Notes: generated by a model from the letters alone, not told the origin. A stretch of DNA of 64,000 nucleotides from Candidatus Latescibacterota bacterium (GCA_965243025.1 CBDETY010000003.1:6304001-6368000); one strand, 5' to 3'; shown: positions 2,013 to 13,197, counted from the first letter of the stretch. Made by a program: numbers and translations.

Positions 2013-3389
2013 ATGGCCCGGCTGCGCCCCCTGCCCTTCGTCTTCCCTCCCTTCGATTTCCTCGAAGACGAGCGCGTCCAGGACGAGCTGATCGCCGGCG
2101 GCGTCGGCGACCTGATGCTCGTCTGGGCCCACCTCTACGACGAGCGCCCCCACCCGGAGGCGACGCCCCACCGCCGCCGAACCGATGGGCGGTTCGTCCG
2201 CGACTACTTCGCCGCGCCCCGCCGCGGGCGCCTGGTACCGGCCGCCTTCCGGGCAACCCCCGAGCTCTACGAAGGCATGAACTGCACGCCCCCGGAGCTG
2301 CCCCCCGGGATGGAGGAGAAGTCCGAGCGCCTCGGGGCCGTCATCGAGCAGCTGTCGGCCAAGGGAGTGCGGGTCTGCGTGTTCGGCTACCTCGGCGACG
2401 GTCCGGACGGCCCGGCGACCTGGCCCTCCGAGGAGTCGCGGCGCGCCCACCGCTGGGAGTACGCCGAGGCTCGCGTCCGCGACTTTCTCCTGCACTTCCC
2501 GGCGCTGGCCGGCTTCGTCACCGACGGCCCCGGATTCGGGTACGAGATCACCCCCGGCTTCACCGGCGGAGGCCCGCTGACCTTCGCCCCGCTGCCCACC
2601 GGAGAGGAGGCGGATGCCCTCGCCGCCGAGCTCGGGGCCGACCTGTCCGCCATGGAGGCGGCCTCCGGCCGGCTGCGGGACTGCCTGCGCGGACTCACCC
2701 CGGAGAAGGTCGACCTGTTCCTCGACAGCCAGGCCGGGGTCTTCGACGCCGTCGACCTGTTCATGGAGGACGACGCCGTGGTCGACCTGCTGCGCTTCAA
2801 GACCCTGGCGACCGAGCGCGAGGTCGGGGCGATGAACCGGGCCGTCAAGGCGGCCGACCCCCGGCTCGAGTACGGCATCTGCCCCCGTCTGCCCTGCTTC
2901 GTCCCCTTCCAGGGCTGCAACTTCCGCCGCCTCAACCGGTTCTGCGACTACAACCAGACCAAGCACTACCTCTGGACCGGCGGCCGCGACGGCTTCCGCG
3001 GGACCCTGGAGCGCTACCGGAACACCCTGCGGGAGTGGAACCCCGGCCTCGGCGACGACCGGATCGAGGCGCTGATCTGCCGCCTCCTCGGGGTGGAGCT
3101 GCCCGGAGACTACCGCATCGCCGACTTCGACCGCCCGGCTCCCTGGAGCTTCTTCGAGAAGGTGGTGTACCGCGAGTCGCGCAAGATGCTGTTCCGCATC
3201 GGCGACCCGGAGCGGATCTCCCCGTTCGTCGGCCTCGAGCACGGGGGCAGTCCCTGGATGACGGCCGAGGAGCTCGACTTCCTCTTCCGGGCGATGGCCG
3301 AGGCCGGGCTGACGCGCTTCACCTACTACTGTTTGAACGACGTCACCGACGAGATCTGGGAGGTGATGACGCGGTATACCGCGGACTGA
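2013..3389 (+). CDS. Hypothetical protein, possibly glycoside-hydrolase-like TIM barrel
   Basis: 458 aa, host-like codon usage, GGAGA RBS. No diagnostic motif recognised; fold is a guess. Confidence 0.6.
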   Translation: MARLRPLPFVFPPFDFLEDERVQDELIAGGVGDLMLVWAHLYDERPHPEATPHRRRTDGRFVRDYFAAPRRGRLVPAAFRATPELYEGMNCTPPELPPGMEEKSERLGAVIEQLSAKGVRVCVFGYLGDGPDGPATWPSEESRRAHRWEYAEARVRDFLLHFPALAGFVTDGPGFGYEITPGFTGGGPLTFAPLPTGEEADALAAELGADLSAMEAASGRLRDCLRGLTPEKVDLFLDSQAGVFDAVDLFMEDDAVVDLLRFKTLATEREVGAMNRAVKAADPRLEYGICPRLPCFVPFQGCNFRRLNRFCDYNQTKHYLWTGGRDGFRGTLERYRNTLREWNPGLGDDRIEALICRLLGVELPGDYRIADFDRPAPWSFFEKVVYRESRKMLFRIGDPERISPFVGLEHGGSPWMTAEELDFLFRAMAEAGLTRFTYYCLNDVTDEIWEVMTRYTAD

Positions 3390-3547
3390 GCGGGGCCCGG
3401 GCGGCCTGGCTGGGGCCGTATCCCGGTAAACGAGATAATCCTCCAACGGAACCAGTGCGGAAAAGCCCCTGAACCTGTCCAAATTTGGAGAGCCTGTTCA
3501 TCCATTCCCTTCATCTCCAGAAGACGGTCATCTTTTGGCCTCCGGGC

Positions 3548-3577
3548 TTGCTTATATGCACGTTTGTTCAGTATATT
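3548..3577 (+). promoter_or_regulatory. Putative sigma70 promoter of the ssp operon
   Basis: TTGCTT-18 nt-TATATT in an AT-rich stretch ~110 bp upstream of the cysteine desulfurase. Confidence 0.4.
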
Positions 3578-3685
3578 CTGATGTGTACAACGTGAGCCGG
3601 TACCGTGTTAACACCTGAGACCAGACGGGCATTTCCTCGCCTTCCGATCTGCAAAACCCATCTCTGATTTACAACTCTCCGGCCC

Positions 3686-4873
3686 ATGAGCATGGAGCCT
3701 TCCGAGATCTATCTCGACAACAACGCCACGACTCAGCCGATGCCCGAAGTCCGAGCCGCGGTGTTGAATGCAATGGGTTCGTTCGGCAATCCCTCCAGCA
3801 GCCATGCAGCCGGCGAACGTGCGCGCGAGCAACTGCACAACGCGAGGTTGTCGCTGGCCTCTCTTCTCGGGTGCGAACCCAACGCGATCGTCTTCACCAG
3901 CGGCGCCACCGAAGCGAACAACACCGTCATCCGCAGTTTCTCCGGTACCGAAAAACGGATCGTGTCGACCTCGGTCGAACACTCATCCGTCCTCGCCCCC
4001 CTCGACAGAAGTGAGCGTGAAGGAACCGAAGTCGTGCTGCTTCCTGTCGATAGAAGCGGAATCGTCGATCCGGACGACCTGAGGGATGCGATCACCGTGG
4101 AGACCTCCCTGGTATCGATTCAGTGGGTGAACAGTGAGACAGGGGTTGTCCAACCGGTCGAGGATTTCGGGCGAATCTGCTCGGAAGCCGGGGTGCCGTT
4201 CCACACGGACGCGGCACAGGCTGTCGGAAAGCTGCCAGTTAGGCGGCGCGAACTCCCGGTCGACTTTGCGTCGATTGCAGGCCACAAGTTCCACGCACCG
4301 CCCGGTACAGGGGCTCTGTATTTGCGCGGCAGTGCTTGGCTCAAGGGTCTACTGGACGGCGGCGATCAGGAATCGGGCATGCGAGCAGGCACCGAGAACG
4401 TCCCGGGCATCGCCGGCATGGGATGTGCTGCCACCATACGTGCAGGATCTCTCCCCGAGACCATCACCCGGCTCGGCAAGCTGCGCGATCTGTTCGAGAG
4501 CGAGGTCATGGACCGGTGCCCCGGCGTGTCCCTAAACGGGGGGCGCGCCACCCGCGTGTGCAACACCACGAACCTGCTCTTCGACGGCGTGGACGGGCAG
4601 GCCCTGGTAGCCCGGCTGGACCAGCGGGGAATCCGGTGCTCGCAGAGCTCGGCATGCACCAATCACCGGCCGGAGCCCTCGCACGTGCTGCGGGCAATGG
4701 GACTGTCTGAGGAGGAAGCCTACGCAAGCGTCCGCTTCAGCTTGTCGGTGCTGAACAGCGAGGAGGAGGTGGTCGCTGCGGCCACCGCCGTGGCGGAAGT
4801 AGTGGCACAGGTAAGGGCATTTTCGGACTGGAAGGACACAAGCCAAACGGAGCTGTCGGGGGTGACCGAATGA
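3686..4873 (+). CDS. sspA: Cysteine desulfurase (DndA/SspA type) of a DNA phosphorothioation cluster
   Basis: YLDNNATT, GNPSS, FTSGATEANN, HTDAAQ, GHKFHAP (PLP Lys), RAGTEN and CSQSSAC. ATGA overlap with the DUF4007 gene. Confidence 0.85.
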   Translation: MSMEPSEIYLDNNATTQPMPEVRAAVLNAMGSFGNPSSSHAAGERAREQLHNARLSLASLLGCEPNAIVFTSGATEANNTVIRSFSGTEKRIVSTSVEHSSVLAPLDRSEREGTEVVLLPVDRSGIVDPDDLRDAITVETSLVSIQWVNSETGVVQPVEDFGRICSEAGVPFHTDAAQAVGKLPVRRRELPVDFASIAGHKFHAPPGTGALYLRGSAWLKGLLDGGDQESGMRAGTENVPGIAGMGCAATIRAGSLPETITRLGKLRDLFESEVMDRCPGVSLNGGRATRVCNTTNLLFDGVDGQALVARLDQRGIRCSQSSACTNHRPEPSHVLRAMGLSEEEAYASVRFSLSVLNSEEEVVAAATAVAEVVAQVRAFSDWKDTSQTELSGVTE

Positions 4874-5778
4874 AATTCGGAGGACACGAGACCTTCCCCG
4901 TTCGGGAAGGGTGGCTGCACAAAGGGTTGAAGCTCGTCGTCGAAGAGCCCGAAAAGCTCGTTGACGAGCACGTTGCCGACTGGCTTGGCGTGGGCAGAAA
5001 CATGGCCAAGTCGATCCGCTATTGGCTCCAGGCGACAGGCCTGTGCGAGCAAGTCTCGGGGACCCGGCCTCGCAAGAGCGCCCTGCTGCAAACCACTCCT
5101 CTGGGAAGTCTCGTCTGGGAGCGCGATCCCTACTTCACCGACATAGGCACCTGGTGGGCGCTCCACGTGAACCTGATCAGCAGCGATGAGCACGCGTTCA
5201 CCTGGGATTGGTTCTTCAACAGATTCAAGCTGCAGCGCTTCGACAAGGCGGTGTGCGTCGAGGGACTGCAACGGTTCCTCCAGATGCATCGGGGTCGCAT
5301 GCCCAGCCCCCGCACCCTCGACCGGGACGTGAGCTGCCTGCTGCTGAGCTATTCGAGAAGCCTCCCGGACAGGGAGGTGGATCCGGAGGAGGCGCAGGAG
5401 TCTCCGTTCGTCGAGCTGGGCTTGCTGTCCCACTACTGGACAAGCGGGTACTACGAGGTCGACCAGGGCACGAAAGCGATTCCCGCTCATATCCTGTGCT
5501 ACTCCCTGACCAGGGCCTTCGGCGGCGACGCCCACGACGGCCCGATCCAGGCCTCGGTCCAGGAGTCGTCACACCGGCGGGGCGGTCCGGGGACCGCCTT
5601 TTGCATGACCGCGGAAGACCTGTACGAAGCCGTGATTCAGGCGGAAGACGAGCAGGTCGGTCTCGAAATCCACGGACTGGCGGGGCAGCGAAACCTCGTC
5701 GTCGAGCGACGGGAAGAAACGAACTGGCTGGATGGATATTTCAACCATGCGGGATTGGACGGGCTCCATGCAGCTTAA
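4870..5778 (+). CDS. sspB: DUF4007 family protein (SspB-like)
   Basis: N-terminus MKFGGHETFPVREGWLHKG, LGVGRNMAKSIRYWL, DPY...TWWALHVNL, SPFVELGLL. Confidence 0.85.
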   Translation: MKFGGHETFPVREGWLHKGLKLVVEEPEKLVDEHVADWLGVGRNMAKSIRYWLQATGLCEQVSGTRPRKSALLQTTPLGSLVWERDPYFTDIGTWWALHVNLISSDEHAFTWDWFFNRFKLQRFDKAVCVEGLQRFLQMHRGRMPSPRTLDRDVSCLLLSYSRSLPDREVDPEEAQESPFVELGLLSHYWTSGYYEVDQGTKAIPAHILCYSLTRAFGGDAHDGPIQASVQESSHRRGGPGTAFCMTAEDLYEAVIQAEDEQVGLEIHGLAGQRNLVVERREETNWLDGYFNHAGLDGLHAA

Positions 5779-5997
5779 AACAATATCCACGGCCAGAGAC
5801 CCTGTCTCGCAGGACTCATTTCTGCGTTCGATAAAAATCGTCTACGACGGAAGAGCCAGGTCGGATCGCCCACTTCCGTCGAGGACCGAATTGATGAATT
5901 GTTCGCCAGGCTCGTCGATCTCGTCGGCGAAGCAGAAGCGGAGAGGAGGCTGTCCGTGATTCGGCAAAAGAGGACGGAGGAATCGCTCGATGGCTAG
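5768..5997 (+). pseudogene. sspC: Internally deleted SspC-like ATPase: N-terminal ~27 codons joined out of frame to ~48 C-terminal codons
   Basis: ATG 5768 overlaps the sspB stop and reads MQLKT...SFLRSIKIVYD. From ~5851 another frame reads KSQVGSPTSVEDRIDELFARLVDLVGEAEAERRLSVIRQKRTEESLDG*, with its stop (5995-5997) overlapping the sspD ATG at 5990. Confidence 0.65.
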
Positions 5998-6805
5998 CAT
6001 GCAAGAGGCGTTGGAAAGCCTGTCCGACAAGAGCATCCGCCATATCGTCAGTATCTCAGGAGGTAAAGACTCTACCGCGCTCGCCCTGTATCTGCGCCAG
6101 GATTTCCCGGAGATCCCCGCGGAGTACGTGTTCTGCGATACCGGCTGTGAGTTGCCCGAGACCTACGAGTACCTCGAACGGCTGGAAGCACTCCTGGGCG
6201 TGGAGGTGCAGCGGCTCAATGCTCTCGACGATCTCAAGGTCGCGAGGAAGCCAGGTCGCAATCCCTTCGATCTCTACCTGAACGAGCTCTATGGCGGATA
6301 CCTGCCGAATCCGCGTTCGAGATGGTGCACGAGGGTGCTGAAGATTCAGCCGTTCGAACGCTTCGTCGGCGACAGTCAGGCGTTCAGCTACATCGGGATC
6401 CGCGGCGACGAAGACAGGGAGGGGTACCAATCGAAGAAGCCACCGGTGATTTCACAGCGGCCGAACATCCTGCCCGTGTACCCTTTCAAGGACGCGGGGA
6501 TGGTCCTTGAGGACATCAAGCGAATTCTGACCGAATCGGGAATCGGTTTGCCGGGCTATTACCGCTGGCGGTCCCGTTCCGGCTGTTATTTCTGTTTCTA
6601 CCAGCAGGTAGGGGAGTGGCAGAACCTCAAGGAGGTACACCCCGATCTTTTCGAAAAAGCAATGGGGTATGAGCAGGATAGCGCCGGAGACCGGGGCTAT
6701 ACCTGGGTCGACGGACGGCCGCTACTCAGAATTGCGGAGCTGGCGGAGCGGGAGGAGATCCCAGCGCCAGATCTGGCCGAAGGTTGTGCCGTGTGTCATT
6801 TGTAA
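5990..6805 (+). CDS. sspD: PAPS-reductase-family protein (SspD/DndC-like)
   Basis: PP-loop SISGGKDS, FCDTG-ELPETY, RWCTRVLKIQP, RSRSGCYFCFYQ, C-terminal CAVCHL. Confidence 0.85.
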   Translation: MASMQEALESLSDKSIRHIVSISGGKDSTALALYLRQDFPEIPAEYVFCDTGCELPETYEYLERLEALLGVEVQRLNALDDLKVARKPGRNPFDLYLNELYGGYLPNPRSRWCTRVLKIQPFERFVGDSQAFSYIGIRGDEDREGYQSKKPPVISQRPNILPVYPFKDAGMVLEDIKRILTESGIGLPGYYRWRSRSGCYFCFYQQVGEWQNLKEVHPDLFEKAMGYEQDSAGDRGYTWVDGRPLLRIAELAEREEIPAPDLAEGCAVCHL

Positions 6806-6844
6806 CCTTGACGGTACGCCCGAATCTCGTCCTCTTACTGATCG

Positions 6845-7746
6845 ATGAATCGGGACGAGTTCCTCAAGAAGATCGAGCGCATCAACGTCTGGCAGCGTCG
6901 CGGTGAACGCGCGCCGCACAAACCCCTGCTGCTGCTGTTTGCGCTCGGACGCGTCCTCCGCATGGAAGAGCGCCTTGCCCCCTACATGCAGATCGAGAAG
7001 CGGCTCACGGACCTCCTGAAAAACTTCGGTCCGCCCCGCAAGGCGTGGCACCCTGAGTTCCCGTTCGGCCGCCTGCCCGCCGACGGACTCTGGGAGATCC
7101 CCGGGGGAAAACCCTGCCCCGCACTTCCAAGGGAGATCTTCACATCGGCCAGCTACGCAAGCGCGGGGTCCAGGGAGGTTTTCCAGCCCAGCTTTACGAC
7201 CTGCTCCGCAACCGCCCCGAACTAGTGAGAGAGGGGGCACAAAGACTCTTGGAGGGGCACTTCCCCGAGTCCCTGCACGACGAGATCCGCGATGCGGTTG
7301 GCATCCCCCGTAACTGGGTGGTTAGGGATGCGCCGCTTTCCCCGCGGCGGGACCAGGCCTTTCGCAACGAGGTCCTTTGCCAGTACCAGGGACGCTGCGC
7401 AGTCTGTGACTTCGACGTGCGTCTGGGAGAGGATCTGATCGGTCTGGAAGCCGCCCACATCAAGTGGCATGCGGCCGGAGGTCCGGACGAGGTCGCGAAC
7501 GGACTGGCCTTGTGCGGACTGTACCACAAAGCGTTCGACAAGGGCGCGCTCGGTCTGAAAGCCGATGAATGCTCAGGCTACAAGGTGCTCGTTTCCAGCG
7601 ATATCAAAGGTCAAAGCGCCCAGCGCTGGTTTCTCGATTACCACAAAACGCCTCTCCGGAAACCTCGAAACCGTTGCCTCGGCCCCGACCCCAGTTTCGT
7701 GAAGTGGCATGAGAAAGAGGTTTTCCGCCGCCCGGCTCTGACCTGA
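6845..7746 (+). pseudogene. Phosphorothioated-DNA-binding restriction endonuclease (SBD-HNH), 1-nt frameshift at ~7103-7111
   Basis: SBD motifs ERAPHKPLLLLFALGR and PEFPFGRL..GLWEI. The -1 frame after G5A4 continues TLPRTSKGDLH...VREGAQRLLEGHFPESLH into the HNH part CAVC...LEAAHIKWH..GGPD..NGLALC..HKAFD. Confidence 0.8.
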
Positions 7747-7900
7747 CCGCGGCAACCACCCCTGGACAGGCCTGTTCTCCGAAAGGACCGGGCTCTTGAA
7801 ATAGTGTCTCAGTTTGAATGAGACATTACCGTCTGGCAGAATGACCCGGTCACCCGGGAACCCGCTCCGCAGCCTGCCCCAGAACCTACCGGAGCCTCGC

Positions 7901-9304
7901 CTACCCCACTCCCACCCCACCCTCCGCTCGCAGCCACCTCCGCTCCTCCCCCTCGGCCCACGGATACCTGAAGTGCTCGGCCAGCTCCCGGTTGGCCGGC
8001 TGCTCCAGCAGCTCCTCCAGCGCCCCCCAGGCCTGCTCGTACGACCGCGTCTGGTGGTTCTCCAGCGTCTCCCACAGCAGCATGCTCCGGTCCCCGGTCC
8101 GGTACGCCTCCAGCTCCCGCTCCATCCTCAGGATCTCCGGAAGGACCTGCTCCAGCATGATCTTCTTCGGCAGCGGTTCCAGCTTCAGCGGCCGGATCCC
8201 CTCCCCGTCGATCACCGCCGGCACCTCGACGACGACGTCGTCGTCCACCCCGGGCAGGGCTCCCCGGTTCGGCACGTTGACCTGGAACTTCCCGCGCACG
8301 TCGTTGGCGAGCGCGTCGATGATCGGCACCTGCTGCTCCTGGGTGCGGGTGGTTCCGAAGACCTCCGTCATGCGCGCCTCCGGGTCGGCGCACGCCGCCC
8401 GCACCTGCTCCATCCTGCGGTCGAGGCGCTCGACGAACACCGGCCGCGCGATGTGCGTGTCCGGCCCTCCGAACGGCTCCCCGTACCAATGCTTCTTGGT
8501 GGCGATGTCGGTGTGATACCACCAGCCGCCCCGCCGCGGCGTGTCGCCGATCGGCATCAGCCCGTACATGCGGTACTGGTGGATGGTGCCGCGCGACAGC
8601 TGGATGTCGTGGGTCGAGCCCGCCTCGTGGGTCGCCCAGTAGTTCTCCCCCTCCTCCTCGATCCAGCGGTCGATCAGGGGATAGGCGTCCTCGCCGTCGT
8701 AGCGGAAGCTCGTCATCCAGATGCAGTGGTTGACCCCGGGCGCCTCGAAGTCGACGCGGTCGAGGTCGAGGCCGAGCTCGTCGACGATGTGCAGGTACCC
8801 GAGATGCCCGTGGCAGAGGCCGCAGATCCTGACCGGCATCTCCCTCGTCATCAGGGTGCAGCCGTCGAACACCGGGTTGCCGGACTGGATCAGCCACGCC
8901 TCCGGGCACAGCCGCTCCATGTCGCGGCCGAGCTCCATCATTACCCTGAACTGGTAGAAGGAGCCGGCCTCGACGCCGCGGTAGTAATACCCGTGCCTGG
9001 CCATCAGCTCCCTCATGTCGGCCTGATGGTGATGGCTCTGCACCATGGCGGTGTCGATGACGAAGTCGCAGCCGCGCAGCGCTTCGGCGCGGTCGGTGGT
9101 CTGCTGGAAGCGCAGCCGCGCCCCGACCTCGTCGGTGTAGCGCCCCGCCATGCGGGTGACGGCGTCGAGGCGCTCGGCGTCGATGTCCATGAAGTGGACC
9201 TCGCTCCCTTCGAGGTTGGGCGTCAGGCAGAGGTCCTTGACGAGGCCGAGGCTGAAGGTGGCGGAACCGGCGCCGATTACGCCGATGCGTACGGGACTGG
9301 GCAT
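7901..9304 (-). CDS. Glycoside hydrolase family 4 (alpha-glucosidase/alpha-galactosidase)
   Basis: IGVIGAGSATF NAD-binding start, QSGNP, GLCHG, GVNHCIW, VNVPNRG...VVEVPA. Confidence 0.9.
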   Translation of the reverse strand: MPSPVRIGVIGAGSATFSLGLVKDLCLTPNLEGSEVHFMDIDAERLDAVTRMAGRYTDEVGARLRFQQTTDRAEALRGCDFVIDTAMVQSHHHQADMRELMARHGYYYRGVEAGSFYQFRVMMELGRDMERLCPEAWLIQSGNPVFDGCTLMTREMPVRICGLCHGHLGYLHIVDELGLDLDRVDFEAPGVNHCIWMTSFRYDGEDAYPLIDRWIEEEGENYWATHEAGSTHDIQLSRGTIHQYRMYGLMPIGDTPRRGGWWYHTDIATKKHWYGEPFGGPDTHIARPVFVERLDRRMEQVRAACADPEARMTEVFGTTRTQEQQVPIIDALANDVRGKFQVNVPNRGALPGVDDDVVVEVPAVIDGEGIRPLKLEPLPKKIMLEQVLPEILRMERELEAYRTGDRSMLLWETLENHQTRSYEQAWGALEELLEQPANRELAEHFRYPWAEGEERRWLRAEGGVGVG

Positions 9305-9455
9305 GTCATTCCTCCGGCGATCGAATTCGGGGACGCCGCCGGAGCGGGTCCCGGTGAGGTCTATGTTCCATTGTTATCGGCGACAGGTGGAAGGATTGGG
9401 TCAAGAACGGGTTCCATCGGGGCCATCAACATTAATGCCGCCGTGGTCCGCCGAC

Positions 9456-9890
9456 ACGGGCCCTCCGTTCATTTGGGTCGGGGGGCCGGTTGTCGCTGCC
9501 GAAGAGGCCGGGCCGTTTTCTGCCGGCCATTCCGTGTTGATTGCGCCTCGGAGCCGCCGGACCGGCCCCCTTGTTTCGGTAGCTCGCGGGCGCCCGGTTG
9601 CCGCCGCTCGCGAAAGCCGGGTCATGCAGTGCCTCCTGGGCTCGCAACTCCGCACGTAATCCCGCCGCGGTCACCGGCCCTTTAGTTCCGTCGCTGGCGG
9701 AGCCCGGTTTTCACCCCTCGCGAGGGCCCCGGTCATGCAGTGCCACACGATCGCTCAATCGCGTGAATCCCGCCCGCTGCCCCGCCCGAACGGGTCCTTG
9801 GGTCCGTCGCTCGCCCGGCCCGGTTTGCCGCTCGCGAAAGCCCCAGGGCAGTGGCTGCCCCCCGCAATACCGAGAGCATCCGGCCGGCCG
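9456..9890. repeat. Degenerate non-coding tandem repeat, 3-4 units of 105-117 bp
   Basis: Units start at ~9456, 9561, 9673 and 9790. Shared core GCCCGGTT..C(G/C)CTCGCGA(A/G)(A/G)GCC..GGTCATGCAGTGCC; the first unit is the most diverged. Confidence 0.7.
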
Positions 9891-10015
9891 CGGCAGCATT
9901 CCCGCTCGCGGCGTTTGCCTTCGCATGTCGGCCGCCCTGGTACGCCCGCTCCGGCTCCTCGCGAGCCTGCTGCATCGGCGGCCTTCGTTCATTACCCCTG
10001 TATTCGCACCCGGCA

Positions 10016-11122
10016 TCAGCCCAAGTTTCCCAAGACCGCGGCAGCCCCGGCCTCGTCCGATACCCCCTTCTCCCGGTTGCCGTATGTCAGGTTTCCCTGC
10101 ACCAGCACGTTCCGCGCGCCGGCCTCGACGCGGATTCCGTACCGCTGTCCGGCGTCGTCGACCTTGACGTGGTCGTGGACGGAGCAGATGCATCCCTGGA
10201 TCACCACCTGTTCCGCGCTCCCGGCGAGAATCCCCGCCTCCCGGTTGTTGTAGGCGTGGACGCCGCTGACGATGGTGTTGGCCGGGTCCCGGCCGCCCCC
10301 CTCGCCGTCGACGACGACGCCGCTGCCCCCGCGGGTGCCGCCGAAGTCGCTGCCGCCGGTGACCGTCGTGTCCTCGGTGTTGCGGCCGATCCGGATTCCC
10401 GCGCGGCCGTTGCGCACCCCGGTGACGCCGACGATCCGGATCCCCTGGTTGCGCTCGTACCCGCTCTCGGGGGAGGAAAGCAGAATCCCGCAATCCAGGC
10501 AATCCGAGAATTCGCCGCCGACCACCTTGACGTAGTGGCCGCGCTCGATCTTCAGGCCGACGCCGTTGACCTGGGGGTCGCAGAACTGGATCTGGGCGGC
10601 GTCGACCACGGCCCCCCGTTCGCCGCCGCCGCCGCGCAGGTGGAAGCCGATGCCGCAGTGGTTGGCGCCGACGTTGTGCAGCGAGAGCAGGTCGGTGGCG
10701 CCGCGCACCAGGATGCCGGCCTTGCCGTTCTCCTTCCCCGAGCCGACGAAGTGCAGGTCGCTGACGGTGACCCCGGCCGCCTTGATGCGGTTGCCGAAGA
10801 TGTCGAGCAGGTCGATGGCCCGGTCCGATCTCAGGACGGTGCCACCGCCGCCCCGGATACCGCGGGCCGCCCCCTGCAGGTGGACGCCGTGCCGGTCTTC
10901 TATGGTCACCGTCGAGGTCAGGTCCCAGGTGCCGGCGGCGATGGTTATGCGGCCGCCTTCGGTGGGCAGGCTGTCGACGGCCCCCTGGATGACCGCGGAG
11001 GCGTCCCCGCCGCCGGCGACGACGCGGCCTCCCATGGCCGAGGCGGCCGCCGCTTCACCCGCGGGGTTCCGGTGGATGTAGATGTCGGGGGACATCGCGG
11101 GAGCGGTCACTTTCTCTTGCAT
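10016..11122 (-). CDS. Right-handed parallel beta-helix repeat protein (pectate-lyase-like fold)
   Basis: D.SAVIQGAVDSLP..GGRITIAAGTW start, followed by repeated N..AGI.I beta-helix rungs. Confidence 0.75.
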   Translation of the reverse strand: MQEKVTAPAMSPDIYIHRNPAGEAAAASAMGGRVVAGGGDASAVIQGAVDSLPTEGGRITIAAGTWDLTSTVTIEDRHGVHLQGAARGIRGGGGTVLRSDRAIDLLDIFGNRIKAAGVTVSDLHFVGSGKENGKAGILVRGATDLLSLHNVGANHCGIGFHLRGGGGERGAVVDAAQIQFCDPQVNGVGLKIERGHYVKVVGGEFSDCLDCGILLSSPESGYERNQGIRIVGVTGVRNGRAGIRIGRNTEDTTVTGGSDFGGTRGGSGVVVDGEGGGRDPANTIVSGVHAYNNREAGILAGSAEQVVIQGCICSVHDHVKVDDAGQRYGIRVEAGARNVLVQGNLTYGNREKGVSDEAGAAAVLGNLG

Positions 11123-11247
11123 TGCTTTGAGCGGGCGCAGGCAGATGGTTCACCCGTCCCGGCCTGCCCCGGGTTTGCCCGCAGCTCCGCGCTGGCCGGC
11201 GGCATCCCCGGAGTCGAACAGGGCCGGGCTTCTCCCGCTGCGGTTTT

Positions 11248-13197
11248 TCACCAGAAGAAGAGGTAGTTGCCCTGCATGCCGGTGAAGCCGTCGACCACCA
11301 GCCACAGCCCTCCGGTCAGGTACTGTCCCAGAATCAGGCCCAGGAAAAAGGGCCGGACGCGATTGTACAGTCCCACGCCCCCGTGGTGCAAAGCGACGGT
11401 CTTGGCCACCCAGGCCACGAACATGCTGGCCATCACCTGGTGAGTGCACCAGACTGCGCCGATGGGGAAGCTCAGGGGGTGTATGGGCCACCACGCCAGG
11501 CGCTGGTGGGCGAGGGTCAACAGGATCTGCACCACGCCCCCGAACCCGACGAAGGCGAGGCTGTCCCAGCGCACGGCGCTGTCGGCGGCCAGGTGGTAGG
11601 AGATGAAGTCGAAGATCCGCCCTCCGGCCGCGGTTCCGAAGAACCAGTGGGCGCTCAGGTTTACCGCGCCGTGCCGGTAACCGAGCAGGAACATGGTTAC
11701 CGCTGCGCAGCAGATCGAGGCGGCCATCGCCGCGGCGATTCCCAGCAGCAGGCGCTTCCTCTGCCCCGCGACCATCCCGTGCGCAAGTTTCAGCCCGTGA
11801 GCCACGGCCGACATGGCCGATGTCCGCATCTCTCCGGCCCAGGGCAGGGTCATGCCGAGGGCGCCGACGCTCGCCGCCGGCATGTTGGCGCTGCCCACTG
11901 CGGCGACAACGAAATCCCCGGGCATGATGGGAATCCGGCTGACGGCGAGGCCGCCCTCGACGACTACCCGCGTGATTCCCAGAAGAAGCAGGAAGAACAG
12001 GACCAGGAACGCCGCGGCAACCCCGGCAGGCATCCCGGTTGCGACGAGCCAGGAGGCGATGAGGGCAAGGCTCCCGGTCAGCAGAAGGACCGTCTGCCGG
12101 CAGGTGAGAAGCTCCTCCCGTTCTCCCTCGCCGCCGCCTCGCCATGCCTGGACCAGGAACCTCCGGATATGGCGGCGCGCCACCCACAGCGCCGTCGCGG
12201 AAAAAACCAGCATGGCCCCCGTCCCCTGGTACGCGGGATAGACAGCGGGGCTGGTGTTGAATACCAGGCGCTCTCCACTGAAAAGGCCGACCCGCATCAG
12301 CACCACTTCCTCGATGATGGTCAGCGCCGCCATGAACCAGATCGAGAAGCTCAGTTTCGTGGTCAACAGGAAGCCGAAACCGATCCCCGCCCAGTTGATG
12401 CCCATCGGAATGTCCACGGCTCCGTCGGCGAAGAGCACATGGATGAAGGTGGGCAGACCCATCGGGAAGTTCGGGTGGTAGTGGTGCAGGGCCTTCATGG
12501 AGTAGAGGACCAGCGGAACACCTGCCCCCAACCAGAAAACGGGGTTCCCGAGTACCGATGCCGGCCGTATCCCGTTCTCCCGTTCCCCCCCGATCAGGGC
12601 GATCGGAACCTGTACCAGGGGGTAGAGGAGGCGCTCGTTGTCCATCCATTGCCGGCGCAGCATGATCGTCAGGGCGACGATGCTTCCCAGCAGGCCGCAC
12701 ACCAGCACTCCCCACGCCGCCAGGGGTTCGAGCCAGGCCTCCCACGGTATGCGTTCGCCGCGCGAAAGCCCCTCGAAAAACCCCCGGGCTGCCGACCGGT
12801 CGCCGACGATGAGCCAGGGCTGCAGGTGCGGGAGCACGGTCTCGAGCCACTTGTTCTCCGTGGACGCGTAGTAGATTCCGCCGGAGATGGCGGGAATCAG
12901 CATCCCCACCAGGCCGTTGGTGGGCAGGACGCAGGCCACCATGGCCATGATGTACAGGGTCGCCAGCTCGACCCGTGAAAACTCCCAGGATCGACGCGCC
13001 AGGCGTAGGGCGGGGTTGACGACGAGCACCAGCAGGGAGAAGGCGAAGAGCGCCGCCCCCATGCTGTAGTCGAAGTTCATCGTCGAACCCGAGATCATCA
13101 GGTTCTCCCAGGCCGCACCCCCACCGATTGCCGCAGCCAGCAGTATCCCCGCGATCAGGGCGCGCACCGTGATCCCCCGGTCATTCGTCGCTGTCAC
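11248..13197 (-). CDS. DUF6785/DUF6784 family multi-pass membrane protein (putative transporter)
   Basis: Many TM segments, ILRRQW-like 'MLRRQWMDNERLLYPLVQVP', WWPIHPL, RPFFLGLILG. Confidence 0.8.
   Translation of the reverse strand: MTATNDRGITVRALIAGILLAAAIGGGAAWENLMISGSTMNFDYSMGAALFAFSLLVLVVNPALRLARRSWEFSRVELATLYIMAMVACVLPTNGLVGMLIPAISGGIYYASTENKWLETVLPHLQPWLIVGDRSAARGFFEGLSRGERIPWEAWLEPLAAWGVLVCGLLGSIVALTIMLRRQWMDNERLLYPLVQVPIALIGGERENGIRPASVLGNPVFWLGAGVPLVLYSMKALHHYHPNFPMGLPTFIHVLFADGAVDIPMGINWAGIGFGFLLTTKLSFSIWFMAALTIIEEVVLMRVGLFSGERLVFNTSPAVYPAYQGTGAMLVFSATALWVARRHIRRFLVQAWRGGGEGEREELLTCRQTVLLLTGSLALIASWLVATGMPAGVAAAFLVLFFLLLLGITRVVVEGGLAVSRIPIMPGDFVVAAVGSANMPAASVGALGMTLPWAGEMRTSAMSAVAHGLKLAHGMVAGQRKRLLLGIAAAMAASICCAAVTMFLLGYRHGAVNLSAHWFFGTAAGGRIFDFISYHLAADSAVRWDSLAFVGFGGVVQILLTLAHQRLAWWPIHPLSFPIGAVWCTHQVMASMFVAWVAKTVALHHGGVGLYNRVRPFFLGLILGQYLTGGLWLVVDGFTGMQGNYLFFW

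Follow-up and report, generated by a model that had tools for sequence, protein, structure and literature searches.

A decayed Ssp phosphorothioation locus followed by an SBD-HNH nuclease gene in Candidatus Latescibacterota, with parallel loss of the writer in related genomes

Positions 3686 to 7746 of a 64,000-nucleotide stretch from a Candidatus Latescibacterota bacterium (GCA_965243025.1, CBDETY010000003.1:6304001-6368000; hereafter the window) hold the decayed remnant of an Ssp-type phosphorothioation (PT) operon, followed by a nuclease gene of the SprMcrA family that joins an SBD to an HNH domain. Neither gene family is new. What is modestly new, as a comparative result, is that the Ssp writer has been lost in parallel beside this nuclease: in all six genomes of the phylum where the nuclease follows sspD the writer is broken, each time by a different lesion, and the nuclease is retained (dN/dS, the ratio of nonsynonymous to synonymous divergence, is 0.12 among three of them, G001, G002, and G019), which argues that the nuclease is not a partner dependent on the writer. 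We tentatively read the locus as a decayed Ssp writer next to an autonomous type IV nuclease, placed in a variable effector slot, that would act against foreign PT-DNA. An earlier sequence-only reading had suggested an undescribed working sspABCD+SBD-HNH variant, which is at variance with a writer broken in every adjacent genome.

Results

Writer loss beside the nuclease

We surveyed 168 genomes of the phylum for SspD (E <= 1e-40) and for NF045808 (E <= 1e-25), the NCBIfam family "phosphorothioated DNA-binding restriction endonuclease". The former was found in 44 genomes and the latter in 19, and the nuclease gene directly follows sspD in six of the 44: the window's own genome (G000), G001, G002, G019, G127, and G133, in which a contig break separates the two genes. 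The sequence-only reading had named several patterns that would speak against its proposal. One of them, an adjacency unique to this genome, is not what we observed; another, an adjacency found only where sspC is dead, fits the data once it is widened to any writer gene.

The lesions differ in place and kind. G000 has a 3,106-bp deletion in sspC. G001 carries a TGG-to-TGA nonsense change and a ~470-bp deletion in sspB, and G002 has ~600 bp of sspB deleted; each of the two retains a segment of sspB that is missing in the other, so that these events were independent. In G019, sspC is absent and the junction holds a 1,233-bp DDE_3 insertion sequence. The ssp genes of G127 and G133 belong to another lineage (their SspD shares 47% identity with that of the window), and these genomes have a nuclease allele 44-46% identical to that of L010, the locus that corresponds by its coordinates to G001; they lack 1,971 bp and 2,095 bp, respectively, of sspA-sspB, and the borders of the G133 gap are not nested with those of G127. 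The junction left by sspC loss in G019 also occurs in G160 and G165, where the slot is filled by single-gene nuclease cassettes of other kinds (NOV_C and HNH_4), and at least five of the six lesions are exclusive to nuclease-adjacent loci. All remaining ssp genes are intact open reading frames (ORFs) with low pairwise dN/dS.

The controls were 36 ssp loci, in 33 genomes, that have no nuclease of this family beside them. The writer is broken in five (L011 in G160, L181 in G165, L192 in G030, L199 in G051, and L207 in G107), L013 is ambiguous because its sspD has a stop at codon 258 of 271, and the other 30 have stop-free, near-full-length sspA-D, each in a single high-scoring segment pair (HSP). 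Five of the intact loci (L185, L188, L189, L196, and L197) were counted as such at 0.83-0.84 coverage to a distant query because they are single-HSP and stop-free, like their sisters. Fisher's test of broken writer against adjacency gives 8.8e-5, or 1.8e-4 with L013 as broken; under a stricter automatic rule of 0.85 coverage, 12 of 37 non-adjacent loci are broken (p = 0.007), L174 being counted as non-adjacent owing to a contig break. These figures are indicative, since related genomes are not independent, and the number of distinct lesions is the stronger argument.

One explanation of this association is a direct conflict between writer and reader, in which the nuclease would read the Ssp PT marks and cut its own cell's DNA, perhaps mildly given that the marks are single-strand, and selection would remove the writer or, elsewhere, the nuclease. 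Such a conflict was among the options of the sequence-only reading, and it is still a live rival, if a doubtful one. Different large lesions at all six adjacent loci, against five broken writers in 36 controls, are what it would produce, and a section of Lutz et al. (PMC7461809) predicted such outcomes for dnd genes: where these lie near an SBD-HNH homologue (less than 3.6% of the homologues), mutated writers, inactive nucleases or different specificities were expected. The history of the g1 genomes points the other way. The nuclease is at least as diverged (dS 0.26-0.76) as the neighbouring genes (0.33-0.42), sspB is kept in G000 and sspC in G001 and G002, so the g1 ancestor probably had an intact writer and an intact nuclease and carried them together for some time.

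The locus in the window

The genes of the operon (Table 1) follow each other on one strand in overlapping frames: the start of sspB overlaps the stop of sspA, the ATG of the sspC remnant overlaps the stop of sspB, and its TAG overlaps the sspD ATG (5990). The nuclease gene begins 39 nt after sspD. Gene identities, the common strand, the overlaps, and the 39-bp gap had been given in the sequence-only reading for positions 3686 to 7746, and all were borne out. The sspA product, also matched by the DndA model of PADLOC (7.4e-120), is 84-87% identical in amino acids to its orthologues in G001 and G002; the PADLOC match of SspB covers positions 1-291 of the 293 of the model; and SspD is 97% identical to those of G001 and G002, with dN/dS of 0.04-0.08.

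The window resembles the SspABCD-SspE and SspABCD-SspFGH systems (Xiong 2020; Wang 2021, PMC8092258) in having sspA, sspB, sspD, and both ends of sspC in the canonical order. It differs from them in that sspC is destroyed, full-length SspC (~1,050-1,110 aa) being the one component absent beside SspA, SspB, and SspD, and in that neither SspE nor SspFGH adjoins the writer: downstream lie the nuclease gene and then, on the opposite strand, a family-4 glycoside hydrolase (GH4) gene. Where a PT-requiring effector would be expected, the slot holds a nuclease predicted to be PT-dependent.

The deletion in sspC is clean. By blastn, window positions 3684-5878 correspond to 2592-4782 of L012 and 5878-6804 to 7889-8815, and 3,106 bp internal to the gene are missing relative to L012. 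A 5' piece of ~110 nt, short of 2 further nt in the alignment of the junction, and a 3' piece of ~120 nt are joined at about 5878. Intact SspC homologues in L010, L012, and L013 have 1,111-1,112 aa (PADLOC SspC 8.5e-153 for the 1,111-aa protein of L012); the remnant has no match in Pfam, PADLOC or NCBIfam. With 3.1 kb of sspC gone, the writer is unable to work. In a comparison of metagenomic contigs that covered runs X1, X3, X4, and X15, the junction is bridged by record 1 of X1 (5602-6059) and record 11 of X3 (5602-6190), each of which differs from the window by ~25 substitutions. X1 and X3 come from two independent sponge-metagenome studies, and the presence of the junction in both indicates that the deletion is no assembly artefact but a genuine change, fixed among related strains of one population.

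The runs matching window positions 5600-7800 (X1-X18) come from 10 studies, and nearly all are labelled as metagenomes of sponges or of marine origin. The host organism is probably sponge-associated, and the closest metagenome-assembled genomes (MAGs) to its lineage are labelled Latescibacterota or Gemmatimonadaceae.

Table 1. Features of the ssp/nuclease locus in the window, and cassettes between sspD and the amidohydrolase gene in four related loci
Sequence	Feature	Position	Strand	Evidence
Window	sspA, cysteine desulfurase, intact, 395 aa	3686..4873	+	Pfam Aminotran_5 8.5e-67; PADLOC SspA 1.9e-122
Window	sspB, DUF4007 DNA-binding subunit, intact, 302 aa	4870..5778	+	DUF4007 4.5e-64; PADLOC SspB 2.7e-108
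Window	sspC remnant, 229 nt	5769..5997	+	Homology to both ends of intact SspC
Window	sspD, PAPS-reductase-type sulfurtransferase, intact, 271 aa	5990..6805	+	PAPS_reduct 1.8e-13; PADLOC SspD 8.6e-90
Window	SBD-HNH gene, SprMcrA family (NF045808), frameshifted	6845..7746	+	NCBIfam; Pfam HNH_2; PDB SBD matches
Window	Family-4 glycoside hydrolase (GH4), conserved chromosomal flank	7901..9304	-	Glyco_hydro_4 1.1e-37; Glyco_hydro_4C 2e-34
L171	Slot cassette: SBD-HNH nuclease	11617-12589		
L181	Slot cassette: 474-aa HNH_4 protein	7182-8815		
L011	Slot cassette: 359-aa NOV_C protein	8845-10010		
L012	Slot cassette: 420-aa protein + DndB-like protein	8815-12298		

The SBD-HNH nuclease

Two frames make up the nuclease gene. 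Frame one (6845-7225) matches positions 2-83 of NF045808 (9.2e-28, 97 bits), and frame two (7057-7746) matches positions 93-284 (2.4e-59, 201 bits; the cut-off of the family is 180 bits) and Pfam HNH_2 (8.8e-10). In phmmer searches the N-terminal piece matches solved SBDs, those of SprMcrA (7cc9, 1.5e-5) and ScoMcrA (5zmo, 2.5e-4). Its H25-K26 and F72-P73 align to the ScoMcrA pocket residues H116, R117 (K in most homologues), Y164, and P165; the roles of these sulfur-pocket residues are described in a section of PMC6224610, where the Y-to-F position is reported as variable. The HNH motif, LEAAHIKWH...NGLALC...YHK, is conserved in the nuclease alignment (A5, 13 rows). The fold was modelled on the intact 299-aa orthologue of L010, which is 85% and 78% identical to the two pieces in the window, and not on the broken window gene. 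The AlphaFold model (built with A5; pLDDT 90.4, pTM 0.88) matches the ScoMcrA SBD (5zmo_A: E 4.2e-8, target TM 0.83, rmsd 2.2 over 154 columns), SprMcrA (7ccj: TM 0.79), and Hga (8h0l: TM 0.65), and its C-terminal half matches the HNH domain of TagI. Sequence and model matches both confirm the SBD assignment of the sequence-only reading.

The window lacks an uninterrupted nuclease frame, having a 1-nt deletion relative to L010 in the G-run at 7103..7107 (+). A contig of run X15, near-identical to the window at a depth of 10.7 and probably from its source sample, has the same G-run, and the X1 and X3 contigs have one extra G behind 7102 that restores the frame. These contigs make it most likely that the frameshift is real but strain-specific, a homopolymer error at the G-run being the remaining alternative. 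Inactivation of both sspC and the nuclease had been called in the sequence-only reading, and these pseudogene calls are right. Phase variation at this G5/G6 run and at an A6G8 tract in L050 was considered and is not claimed, the tracts being short. Elsewhere the nuclease is one open frame of 295-301 aa (in G001, G002, G019, and G127) or is open yet split by the contig break (G133), and by its substitution pattern it is under purifying selection in G001, G002, and G019.

Enzymes of the SprMcrA/EcoWI type (NF045808; PDB 7CC9, 7CCD, 7CCJ) share with the window nuclease the two-domain build of ~290-300 aa, the pocket positions, and HNH_2. The window nuclease differs from them in its frameshift, in its place 39 nt after sspD in an ssp operon, in a phenylalanine instead of the tyrosine "lid", and perhaps in specificity. 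Hga (8H0L, PMC10602919) has an SBD of like fold joined to another nuclease domain, PD-(D/E)XK. According to a section of that paper it restricts a CpsCA-writing cluster 10-fold, which gives the conflict explanation a precedent; no other published SBD enzyme is reported to restrict such a cluster. Against that explanation, a section of PMC7470945 reports that the SBD of SprMcrA does not bind CpsCA. This result also softens the paradox that the sequence-only reading had seen in a PT writer and a PT-directed cutter within one operon.

The effector slot after sspD

We scanned 75 + 53 ORFs downstream of sspD with PADLOC, 20 mostly small ORFs being dropped (in L053, L055, L056, L059, L062, L064, L065, L066, L072, L074, L076, L081, L088, and L089). 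The scanned loci carry SspF (19), SspE (4), SspH (1), PbeA-like helicases (7), DndB-like proteins (5), and many unnamed products. In sisters with intact writers the slot holds modules of several genes: a PbeC-like one, a DndB-like protein with SNF2, or a 420-aa protein with a DndB-like one. L171, L181, L011, and L012 have four different cassettes between sspD and a conserved amidohydrolase gene (Table 1), and this interval is a hot-swap slot. In genus g18, sspC is gone in all three related genomes with single-gene nuclease cassettes. The 474-aa HNH_4 protein of G165 was examined as a relative of the SBD-HNH nuclease and rejected, as it has no similarity to it and no useful match in the PDB.

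This variety would also be expected if nuclease and writer were chance neighbours, the slot being a hot spot for defence cassettes and writer decay being unrelated to its content. The four different contents between the same flanks in g18 agree with this, and so does the rarity of the arrangement among the best 80 of 337 SspD relatives in species-representative genomes, where a nuclease lies within 8 kb in four loci (L010, L026, L046, and L050) and directly after sspD in just one (L010). We nevertheless consider chance unlikely: the link with broken writers (six of six against five of 36) holds over two unrelated ssp lineages and unrelated nuclease alleles, and nucleases of this family lie beside PT-writer genes in about a quarter of well-flanked loci. 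The latter figure comes from the best 80 of at least 535 metagenomic nuclease loci, of which 40 are flanked by 3 kb or more on one side or both; two of these adjoin ssp genes and eight adjoin dndB/C/D (10/40). In L117, L138, and L154 the dndB/C/D genes beside the nuclease are full length, which again speaks against an inherent conflict between nuclease and writer.

The slot survey also brought up two other recurrent arrangements. In L029, L030, L031, L041, L042, L043, L047, L052, and L058, a pair of genes for proteins of ~200-270 aa and ~600-760 aa stands directly after sspD; PADLOC gives it no match or a weak DndB-like one, and it is a candidate undescribed Ssp partner module. In L017, L019, L024, L054, L069, and L070, a PbeA-like helicase of ~540-595 aa follows sspD, and four of these loci (L017, L019, L054, and L069) encode next a protein of ~605-650 aa with an MzaB-like N-terminus, a recurrent unnamed Ssp-linked module.

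Nucleases linked to ssp genes beyond the phylum

Together we examined 12 ssp-linked nuclease loci (the window, L010, L170, L171, L173, L174/175, L026, L046, L050, L099, L100, and L116). On a quick IQ-TREE tree their nucleases fall in at least four places, those of L026 and L046 being on very long branches of unsure placement. Only in L116 are both partners clearly intact: the nuclease lies upstream of intact sspB, sspC, and sspD and a PbeA-like gene. In L099 and L100 the nuclease stands between an sspB fragment and sspD, and L026 is without sspB and sspC. In L046, sspABCD and SspE are intact, and the histidine of the HNH motif is missing from the nuclease (AYIKLP instead of AHIKWH). In L050, from a Spirochaetia MAG, the nuclease is 22 nt upstream of sspA, SspF and SspG are intact downstream, and sspC has a frameshift in the A6G8 tract (5487-5501), due either to misassembly or to a switch site that is prone to slippage.

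The near-exclusive pattern over these 12 loci is in line with a conflict, and L046, where the writer was kept and the nuclease was disarmed on its very long branch, would be its mirror image. L116 is an exception to such a conflict, and L050 is another if its frameshift is an assembly error.

The same two loci bear on a further explanation, a true SspABCD + SBD-HNH system such as the sequence-only reading had suggested, here taken to be one in which the nuclease would sense host PT as SspE does and be activated against unmarked invaders; the window would then show it only after recent decay. In both loci, the nuclease has the same orientation as ssp genes that look complete; in the genus of the window, the common strand and the 39-nt gap are conserved over dS ~0.3-0.4; and a section of PMC10853773 makes a comparable proposal for wHTH(SBD)+SAD+HNH proteins in the dnd loci of 698 taxa. 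We hold such a system to be very improbable. A writer-dependent effector should retain its writer, yet all six writers are dead, and five of the six genomes (not G000) have an intact nuclease under purifying selection, as do the sister strains of G000 in X1 and X3. L050 (SspF and SspG) and L116 (PbeA-like) already have effectors, so the nuclease is an add-on there.

Phosphorothioation genes elsewhere in the genome

G000 encodes no full SspE, only a 102-residue DUF262-like match to it elsewhere, and no match to SspF, a weak blank since the SspF search was also silent in control genomes. It has a complete dndA-E cluster at ~1.97 Mb (G000:C3:1963000-1983000, L008; dndA on the minus strand), with PbeA (2.5e-227), a PbeC-like ATPase, and a DUF262/HEC-06/Orf5-type gene upstream and a TmtA-like gene of 1,084 aa downstream. 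To judge by its gene content, G000 thus has, next to the dead Ssp writer, one for double-strand PT that looks functional. It also has a second NF045808 gene, which is intact (297 aa, 287 bits) and lies on the minus strand at ~3.857 Mb (G000:C3:3857123-3858938; L009:9100-10938), among metabolic genes and head to tail with a gene for an HNH_2 protein of 313 aa; the N-terminal domain of the latter matches no family.

We found no full-length second nuclease copy in G001, G002, and G019, and no DndC either (the genomes are 92-95% complete). Without DndC these three genomes appear PT-free, with an intact reader and no working known writer. Among the four g1/g18 genomes, G000 alone has a dnd cluster and alone has a frameshifted ssp-linked nuclease, a coincidence that a conflict would account for.

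Flanks of the locus

G+C is ~60% across the 3686-7746 region and ~68-72% in its flanks. The GH4 gene is flank, outside the ssp/nuclease system: window positions 5874-9369 are syntenic with 7886-11388 of L010 at 87% identity, and G002 is arranged likewise. Scanning 3300-8100 for promoters and terminators gave no promoter-like site and three terminator-like ones, against 3.8 expected. Beyond the GH4 gene lie two ordinary flank genes on the minus strand, for a right-handed beta-helix protein (10016-11122) and a DUF6785/DUF6784 protein (4.7e-111; 11248-13197).

Discussion

If the locus is a decayed writer with an autonomous nuclease, as we provisionally suggest, then an SprMcrA-family nuclease would have replaced a PT-requiring effector (SspE, SspFGH, or a Pbe-like or DndB-like module) after sspD. 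Its SBD would dock on Rp-phosphorothioate links of incoming DNA from PT-writing donors, and the HNH domain would cut near the bound link, with no need of the neighbouring writer. A section of PMC8092258 reports that SspFGH is toxic to cells without PT, which means that such effectors hold the writer in place. Once the effector tying the cell to its own PT marks was gone, the writer would be unconstrained and be lost repeatedly by deletion, and in G000 the ssp-linked nuclease copy may itself be starting to decay.

A number of points weigh against this proposal. First, a missing known effector alone may not doom a writer: the same section of PMC8092258 counts 2,211 of 2,678 sspBCD clusters with neither sspE nor sspFGH, and these persist. 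The statement of the sequence-only reading that Ssp writers are normally paired with one of the two was, by this count, too strong. Second, G160 and G165 have the same junction as G019, so this lesion is not attributable to the SBD-HNH nuclease specifically. Third, the state of the writer was assessed in all SspD-positive genomes of the phylum but five (G034, G038, G039, G072, and the G131 fragment). Fourth, the surviving ssp genes are intact with low dN/dS, so neutral decay would have to be recent in every lineage, and active selection against the writer fits these values at least as well; pairwise dN/dS cannot separate recent relaxation from continued constraint, and it is given no weight here in the choice between release and conflict. 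Fifth, the PT dependence and sequence preference ascribed to the nuclease are those expected from its family membership.

A bolder version of the conflict explanation is that SBD-HNH nucleases repeatedly enter ssp operons, are incompatible with an active writer, read single-strand PT marks, and so drive parallel writer deletion; we regard this as possible but rather unlikely. To our knowledge, this would be the first case of an HNH-type enzyme that reads the single-strand PT marks of Ssp systems.

The closest published parallels concern Dnd. A section of PMC10853773 describes the wHTH(SBD)+SAD+HNH proteins of dnd loci as proposed alternative restriction components, and for Ssp it mentions sspABCDE alone. 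These proteins, like ScoMcrA (5ZMM), resemble the arrangement in the window in that an HNH-fused PT reader lies beside writer genes. In contrast, the window nuclease has no SAD (SRA) domain and stands beside Ssp genes instead of Dnd genes. The Ssp writers next to it are broken, but dndB/C/D are full length beside the same family in the three loci given above. The term HNH does not occur in PMC8092258, nor do HNH or SBD in PMC12914056, and our full-text literature search found no description of ssp-linked SBD-HNH genes, although Table S4 of PMC7461809 and Dataset S1 of PMC10853773 may list some.

Earlier views of PT nucleases are at odds, since in the sections cited above PMC7461809 has them avoid writers and PMC10853773 has them partner writers, and neither covered Ssp. 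The loci described here amount to a natural experiment: the same nuclease lies after sspD in six genomes and the writer was destroyed in six ways, while sister loci with other effectors mostly retain it (31 of 36). For Ssp, this argues that the nuclease is not a writer-dependent partner. Annotating the locus in the window as an "Ssp system" would be wrong, for it consists of a dead writer and a type IV nuclease pseudogene. If the conflict explanation were true, an intragenomic arms race between PT writer and PT reader would be directly readable from genomes. Intact natural alleles of the nuclease are available, and the reading of Ssp marks is therefore open to a simple bench test.

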